DNA from: Escherichia coli
GTDB lineage: Bacteria; Pseudomonadota; Gammaproteobacteria; Enterobacterales; Enterobacteriaceae
Assembly (NCBI RefSeq): GCF_003334405.1
Contig: NZ_QOWM01000021.1
DNA length: 53,345 nucleotides
Strand: one strand, 5' to 3'
In this document: positions 32,868 to 32,962 of the stretch, piece after piece
Position numbering within the stretch: the stretch's first letter is position 1
Layout of the letters: the number at the start of each line of letters is the position of its first letter
Program-made: the position numbers and the translations under genes
The notes under the pieces: model-generated
The model's database searches: none
What the model was told of the DNA's origin: nothing
The model's input: only the letters and a program-made list of their open reading frames with translations

Positions 32868-32962
32868 TGATGTCACTTTTTGTCATTTATGACATGCTTT
32901 GCTTGTCTGTTTTTGATCGTATTTGTAATTTATCGTCAAAAAATTGACAGCCGTCACTTTTT
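32868..32962. promoter_or_regulatory. Candidate DeoR-type (CsqR/YihW) operator repeats in the divergent yihU-yihV promoter region
   Basis: Direct repeat GTCACTTTT at 32872-32880 and 32953-32961, plus palindrome TGTCATTTATGACA at 32881-32894, in the AT-rich 167-bp divergent intergenic region. Confidence 0.4.

Follow-up and report, generated by a model that had tools for sequence, protein, structure and literature searches.

The window, that is, the whole 53,345-bp stretch of Escherichia coli DNA that was analysed, contains genes of the yih cluster, a model pathway for the breakdown of sulfoquinovose, which is among the most abundant organosulfur compounds in nature. The genes around the control regions described here are as follows:
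31952–32848, minus strand: yihU, encoding sulfolactaldehyde reductase, at the head of the leftward yihUTS unit (open reading frame list and RefSeq annotation of identical E. coli DNA)
33016–33912, plus strand: yihV, sulfofructose kinase coding sequence, whose 3' end carries the csqR promoter (open reading frame list and RefSeq)
33946–34731, plus strand: csqR (yihW), DeoR-family repressor (RefSeq, b3884; homologues carry the Pfam domains HTH_DeoR and DeoRC)

Many complete E. coli genomes showed 100% identity to the 1.1 kb around the spacer between yihU and yihV, with the flanks annotated as these two genes, and RefSeq annotates yihU, yihV, and csqR at the locus. The gene order in E. coli K-12 MG1655 is yihT and yihU (leftward) followed by yihV and csqR (rightward) in RefSeq. 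The spacer itself covers 32849–33015 (167 bp, 33.5% G+C). Shimada and colleagues (2019, Microbiology 165:78; cited in PMC8006165, PMC8249747, and PMC12608037) are said to have found that CsqR represses yihUTS, yihV, and csqR in E. coli K-12. A scan of 32800–33060 with consensus promoters and terminators detected nothing, and Rfam covariance models searched against both strands of 32600–34100 gave no match with E <= 1. In strain DETEC-E223 (NZ_CP116188.1, 4718545–4719262), 65% of the query was matched, with yihV, an 'NAD(P)-binding domain-containing protein', and yihQ under the match, suggesting a deletion that truncated yihU and removed yihT–yihR. Read from a GTG at 33922, upstream of the annotated start, the csqR frame gives a 269-aa ORF, against 261 aa from the RefSeq ATG at 33946; the mapped csqR (yihW) start site at 33918/19 lies just 5' of this GTG, and long and short CsqR forms arising from alternative starts have been discussed (PMC10991401).

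Two DNA segments are bound by CsqR (YihW), a DeoR-family repressor: the yihU/yihV spacer and the region upstream of its own gene, csqR. The complexes on the spacer are large and cooperative, and the protein comes off the DNA in response to sulfoquinovose, sulfoquinovosyl glycerol, and sulforhamnose (PMC8006165, PMC8249747, PMC10991401, PMC12608037); the binding methods were gSELEX, EMSA, and AFM (PMC8006165, PMC8249747, PMC12608037). ChIP-exo with tagged YihW gave one strong site, NC_000913.2 4071641–4071681, with an S/N of 168 (Gao et al. 2021, PMC8464067). We transferred this 41-bp interval to window positions of about 32895–32935 (± ~2 bp), using as anchor the yihV ATG, 4073739 in NC_000913.3, which equals 4071762–4071764 in version 2 as derived from the −25/−27 start quoted at 4071737. 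The initial annotation had assigned the 167-bp divergent region to CsqR, and this assignment is borne out by the RefSeq gene identities together with the published gSELEX, EMSA, AFM, and ChIP-exo results. Our search of the literature to 2025 for a CsqR recognition sequence, box, or operator found none stated, binding being given at fragment level; the primary CsqR paper lay outside this search.

CRP also binds the yihU/yihV and csqR-upstream fragments in vitro, at fragment level, and controls yihV, and a conserved class II CRP site has been reported for the yihW promoter (PMC5816610). The same study mapped yihU starts by primer extension at −15, −25, −35, −62/−63, and −82 to −92 from the ATG, the main yihV start at −25/−27, and the yihW start at −27/−28 (PMC5816610). 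When transferred to the window, the yihU starts fall at 32863, 32873, 32883, 32910/11, and 32930–32940, the main yihV start at about 32989–32991, and the yihW start at 33918/19.

Inspection of the spacer confirmed the direct repeat GTCACTTTT that had been noted at 32872–32880 and 32953–32961, and revealed that it is really 10 bp long, GTCACTTTTT, at 32872–32881 (copy 1) and 32953–32962 (copy 2). Chance expectation was estimated with 5000 dinucleotide-preserving shuffles of the 167-bp spacer: exact direct repeats 10 bp or longer arose with P = 0.036 and those 9 bp or longer, the length first noted, with P = 0.12, whereas inverted repeats (arms of 6 bp or more, separated by no more than 10 bp) were at chance level (P = 0.55). 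From the spacer sequence alone the repeat is thus marginal; it is rescued by outside evidence, namely a copy in the csqR promoter and conservation, which did not rescue the palindrome. Weaker copies of the half-site were found at 32881 (TGTCATTTAT), at 32904 (TGTCTGTTTTT), and inverted at 32939–32949. A repeat search grouped TGTCACTTTTTG (32871), TGTCTGTTTTTG (32904, 83%), and CGTCACTTTTTA (32952, 83%) into one family and paired TTTGTCATTTAT (32879) with TTTGTAATTTAT (32922, 92%). A 10-bp periodic array of TGTCA-like units was considered and rejected, with an autocorrelation of z~1 at lag 10 and one putative unit (TGATC) carrying 3 mismatches; helical phasing of such units gave p~0.04 in a Rayleigh test, which was post hoc and is a weak hint only.

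At the scale of the whole window, exact GTCACTTTTT occurs three times only, twice in the spacer and once in the csqR promoter, and matches with at most one mismatch numbered 14 against 4.0 expected. When GTCA was fixed and up to two mismatches were allowed, no enrichment was observed in the window (21 versus 16 expected), so that the signal resides only in the exact and one-mismatch copies. Among the four regions targeted in the two kinds of E. coli cassette (described below), TGTCA/TGACA was the most enriched pentamer (10 observed versus 1.1 expected). The regions upstream of yihT and yihW had been singled out in the initial annotation as places where the same motif might recur. It was absent upstream of yihT, as well as from the other yih intergenic regions, but upstream of yihW the exact 10-mer adjoins the csqR −10 and is conserved there. 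The elements of this second control region are as follows:
33874–33889, plus strand: CRP-like site TGTGATCAAACCCGAT (TGTGATCAAAC), upstream of the csqR promoter
33897–33906, plus strand: third exact occurrence of GTCACTTTTT, named H7, flanked by the CRP-like site and the csqR −10, within the yihV reading frame
33907–33914, plus strand: csqR −10 TATAAAAT, directly 3' of the third copy (putative hexamer assignment)

The third copy is conserved even at yihV third codon positions, and in most of 51 species GTCACTTTTT, or a slightly altered form of it, was the longest word common to the spacer and the csqR upstream region. Because CRP has been reported on both fragments as well, a common motif is not in itself a specific pointer to CsqR. 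The 3' end of yihV (33826–33912) is the most conserved DNA of the gene, third codon positions included, and by doubling as the csqR promoter it clearly illustrates how coding and regulatory constraints can overlap.

Comparative evidence was obtained by searching one genome per species with YihV, which yielded about 58 loci with the yihU / yihV-csqR arrangement, ranging from Escherichia to Yersinia, Hafnia, and Rahnella; 53 orthologous spacers were aligned, with identity measured to E. coli. Over 49 orthologous loci, the density of matches with at most one mismatch in the two regulatory regions was ~100 times that in the rest of the locus, although these counts are not phylogenetically independent. 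The alignment revealed a conserved block and, within it, a central module:
32903–32984, no strand: ultraconserved core of the divergent control region, 82 bp, mean identity to E. coli 0.92 in 53 spacers
32904–32933, plus strand: central module TGTCTGTTTTTGATCGTATTTGTAATTTAT, under the YihW ChIP-exo peak and near invariant in 53 species

For comparison, yihV showed an identity of 0.72 over the whole coding sequence and 0.47 at third codon positions, and no 82-bp stretch of it exceeded 0.84. The block is also a clean example of overlapping regulatory constraints. Positions 32910–32931 are almost invariant across the 53 spacers without containing a GTCA element, indicating that the constraint there comes from something besides the proposed half-site.

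The ChIP-exo interval lies in the same spacer as the repeats, but on the central module rather than on the exact GTCACTTTT copies or the palindrome: it begins right after the 14-bp palindrome and stops 18 bp short of copy 2, so that neither exact copy is covered (PMC8464067). The central module does hold the degenerate repeat TGTCTGTTTTTG (83%), which at 32904 falls under the interval, followed by TTTGTAATTTAT (92% to TTTGTCATTTAT at 32879). The left module (32871–32890) looks like a compact form of the central module (32904–32933), the two parts of the latter being set one helical turn further apart. We interpret the coincidence of the ChIP-exo interval with the central module as reconciling the ChIP-exo result with a TGTCA-type half-site. 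The minor YihW ChIP-exo peaks (ssuE, glpA, rpsJ/rplC, and yhcC), for which K-12 sequences were scanned, contained no GTCACTTTT-like site, a test that is uninformative.

At the left end of the spacer, copy 1 is followed immediately by a second unit:
32871–32881, plus strand: half-site H1, TGTCACTTTTT (copy 1), with a TGTCA core 97% and a T-rich tail 71% conserved in 53 orthologous spacers
32881–32890, plus strand: half-site H2, TGTCATTTAT, second unit of the tandem TGTCA-N5-TGTCA and also the left arm of the palindrome, with TGTCA in 43–51 of 53 spacers
32889–32894, plus strand: right arm ATGACA of the 14-bp palindrome, lineage-specific, 30% identity to E. coli across 53 spacers

Copy 1 and H2 overlap the yihU starts at −25 and −35, as transferred from the published positions. 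The conserved left feature is the tandem TGTCA-N5-TGTCA (32871 and 32881), whose TGTCA cores are 80–97% conserved in the 53 spacers. In 47 of 53 species at least one of H1 and H2 agrees with GTCACTTTTT at 8 or more of 10 positions, and the match scores of the two are negatively correlated (r = −0.36), which suggests compensation between them.

The initial annotation had combined the two GTCACTTTT direct repeats with the 14-bp palindrome TGTCATTTATGACA into a candidate operator; in this model the palindrome would serve as a dimer-binding site. All of these elements are present, the palindrome at 32881–32894 with 6-bp arms and a 2-bp spacer; DeoR-family operators are known to combine palindromes with direct repeats; and E. 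coli and E. whittamii both retain the palindrome. As a conserved operator unit, however, the palindrome did not hold up: its right arm is 30% conserved and has been lost in E. albertii, Citrobacter, Salmonella, Enterobacter, and Yersinia, lineages in which CsqR remains 77–99% identical, the inverted repeat is at chance level, and the ChIP-exo peak starts just past it. We therefore consider this arrangement improbable. The 14-bp palindrome is not a conserved unit; its right arm is probably without function, and only the left arm would matter, as the second member of TGTCA-N5-TGTCA.

Two more distant loci bear on which elements are retained. A divergent 'short' yihTUVW-type cassette, with ~65% DNA identity, was found in about 1327 of 5426 complete E. 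coli genomes, one example being E. coli 13P477T (NZ_CP019273.1, 3495593–3501498), where its neighbours are a zinc-dependent alcohol dehydrogenase gene and yihN. The regulator of this cassette shares 72% identity with CsqR and has an almost unchanged winged helix-turn-helix. The short-cassette spacer keeps the central module and TCACT, its left TGTCA elements are inverted (TGACA x3), and copy 2 has decayed to ATCACTAATT; the third copy is kept as GTCACTTTAT, the regulator promoter retaining TTTTTGTCACTTT. Besides its own spacer, K-12 CsqR also binds that of the short cassette, and a weak sulfoquinovose response has been reported for short-cassette strains (PMC12608037); the changes in the spacer may bear on that weak response. 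In Dongshaea marina (CP028897.1), which lies outside Enterobacterales and has a regulator 68% identical to CsqR, TTTGTCACTTAT, the central module, ...TGAC-attc-GTCACTCTTT, and TTTTTGTCAGTTTAT are kept at corresponding places, and the third copy is kept as GTCAGTTTAT. The yihV-like kinase of this genome is called as two PfkB ORFs (173 and 99 residues), the regulator and control region being intact; the gene is possibly frameshifted or a pseudogene.

On the right side of the spacer, copy 2 forms part of a larger symmetrical element upstream of the yihV promoter:
32939–32962, no strand: operator-like 24-bp imperfect palindrome AAAAATTGAC-agcc-GTCACTTTTT, right arm copy 2, left arm a minus-strand copy of the 10-mer bearing 1 mismatch
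32979–32984, plus strand: TAAAAT, likely −10 of the main yihV promoter (start −25/−27, PMC5816610), invariant in the alignment

The minus-strand one-mismatch copy, GTCAATTTTT, occupies 32939–32948, 4 bp from copy 2. Copy 2 itself is 97% conserved in the 53 spacers and lies inside the 82-bp block. Both arms of the palindrome are at least 90% conserved and spacer positions 32950–32952 vary freely, a pattern that resembles the usual signature of a dimer site. The palindrome covers the −35 position of the yihV promoter, which has no recognisable −35. On the minus strand, TGTCAATTTTTTG (32937–32949) matches 8 of 9 specified positions of the IHF core consensus WATCAANNNNTTR by eye, beside an AT-rich tract, and an architectural protein at this putative IHF-like site could help to fold the region. 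In the UlaR-controlled ulaG/ulaA spacer, folding is aided by an architectural protein.

Most of the same 24 bp, 32940–32961, can be read as a CRP site. The sequence ATTGA-N6-TCACT matches the CRP consensus TGTGA-N6-TCACA at 7 of 10 positions with the critical G/C pairs kept, a score of 7 or more being reached at ~0.3% of window positions, and its centre at 32950.5 lies about −39.5 to −40.5 from the yihV start at 32989–32991, which places the class II position of −41.5 within mapping error. This raises the alternative of a split assignment, in which the central module (32904–32933) is the primary CsqR operator, the 24-bp palindrome is a class II CRP activator site for yihV, and copy 2 resembles copies 1 and 3 because the CRP half-site (TCACA plus TTT) happens to look like some other element. 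The ChIP-exo peak on the central module and off the exact copies fits this alternative, as do the binding of CRP to the yihU/yihV fragment and its control of yihV (PMC5816610), the lack of a recognisable yihV −35, and the binding of K-12 CsqR to a short-cassette spacer that has the central module but only the decayed copy 2. The variation within copy 2, where the G of GTCAC may become A and TCAC is invariant, is also more CRP-like (RTCAC). However, copies 1 and 3 lack the CRP left half (1 of 5 positions at most) and cannot be CRP sites, yet they share 10–13 identical bases with copy 2 or with each other. The left half of the would-be CRP site has no G at site position 5, and two bases inside its N6 spacer, 32948–32949, are invariant, which a TGACA half-site explains and CRP does not. 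The CRP ChIP-exo supplement contains no yih entry, and a CRP prediction paper likewise lists no site in the yih region. We regard the split assignment as rather unlikely as a whole, with the reservation that copy 2 may be mainly a CRP site or common to CRP and CsqR.

A further alternative invokes no specific factor, the repeats being a by-product of an AT-rich promoter rich in T-tracts (UP-element-like sequence, curved DNA, hexamers) and their likeness coincidental. The base composition of the spacer, the P of 0.12 for a 9-bp repeat, the lack of enrichment when two mismatches are allowed, and the overlap of copy 2 with promoter positions are all compatible with this. It does not accommodate the confinement of three exact 10-mers to two regulator-bound regions, conservation of 0.92–0.97 against a neutral level of 0.47, the conserved arms around a free spacer, which point to a bound protein, or the persistence of the elements in the short cassette and Dongshaea, and we judge it very improbable. 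The repeat is very probably under selection as a cis-element, and a CsqR half-site is most likely what it represents.

The best explanation of these observations is that CsqR recognises half-sites of the form TGTCA(C/T)TTTT and acts through the mechanism outlined here, to which we assign a probability of about 0.6. The copies overlap promoter elements throughout, copy 1 and H2 on yihU starts, copy 2 at the yihV −35, and copy 3 abutting the csqR −10, where the hexamers are putative assignments. CsqR oligomers would bind TGTCA(Y)TTTT half-sites cooperatively over ~95 bp (32871–32962) and would thereby cover every mapped yihU start together with the yihV −35. The left pair would occupy the proximal yihU starts, at a place downstream of the distal set, the −62/−63 start would fall within the central module, and the 24-bp palindrome would lie at the yihV −35 position and over the distal yihU promoter. 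At csqR, the single site at 33897–33906, between the CRP site and the −10, would block the promoter and result in autorepression. Binding of an effector (sulfoquinovose, its glycerol glycoside, or sulforhamnose) at the C-terminal domain then releases CsqR, a step that is published.

Such an arrangement has parallels among DeoR-family regulators. GlpR, DeoR, UlaR, and AgaR of E. coli and DeoR of Bacillus subtilis use several half-sites that begin with TGT, in tandem or inverted repeats, and oligomeric repressors of this family act by cooperative binding or looping at sites that overlap promoters, often with CRP sites adjacent. TGTCAYTTTT is not the half-site of GlpR or DeoR, however. Relative to the CsqR system known from K-12, the locus, the regulator, the two bound segments, the cooperative oligomeric binding, and the release by sulfoquinovose are the same; that system is already known at the region level, and the base-level half-site, the third copy, and the ultraconserved block are the refinement made here.

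A more far-reaching proposal, which we put forward tentatively, is that the 82-bp core and the three GTCACTTTTT copies encode both a CsqR recognition code (TGTCAYTTTT) and a fixed higher-order repressor complex that shares bases with the CRP site, and possibly with the IHF-like site, on one face of the helix. If true, such overlapping constraints would account for a bidirectional promoter that exceeds its own genes in conservation, from Escherichia to Yersinia and in part in Aeromonadales. A defined half-site would also allow targeted operator mutants and prediction of the CsqR regulon in other bacteria, could explain the poor sulfoquinovose response of short-cassette E. coli, and could be used in the design of sulfoquinovose-responsive biosensors.

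Two further observations concern the yihV leader. A 23-nt inverted repeat, 74% complementary, links 32953–32975, with copy 2 and the promoter, to 32992–33014, in the leader and Shine-Dalgarno region of yihV; an mRNA structure formed by it is unlikely because its left arm lies upstream of the mapped yihV start. In Yersinia, Buttiauxella, and Hafnia (six loci), 20–125 extra bases are present between the yihV −10 and the ribosome-binding site, and this insert opens with a common CATCGTGATC/CATGTGATC motif, suggesting an added leader element that is absent from E. coli.
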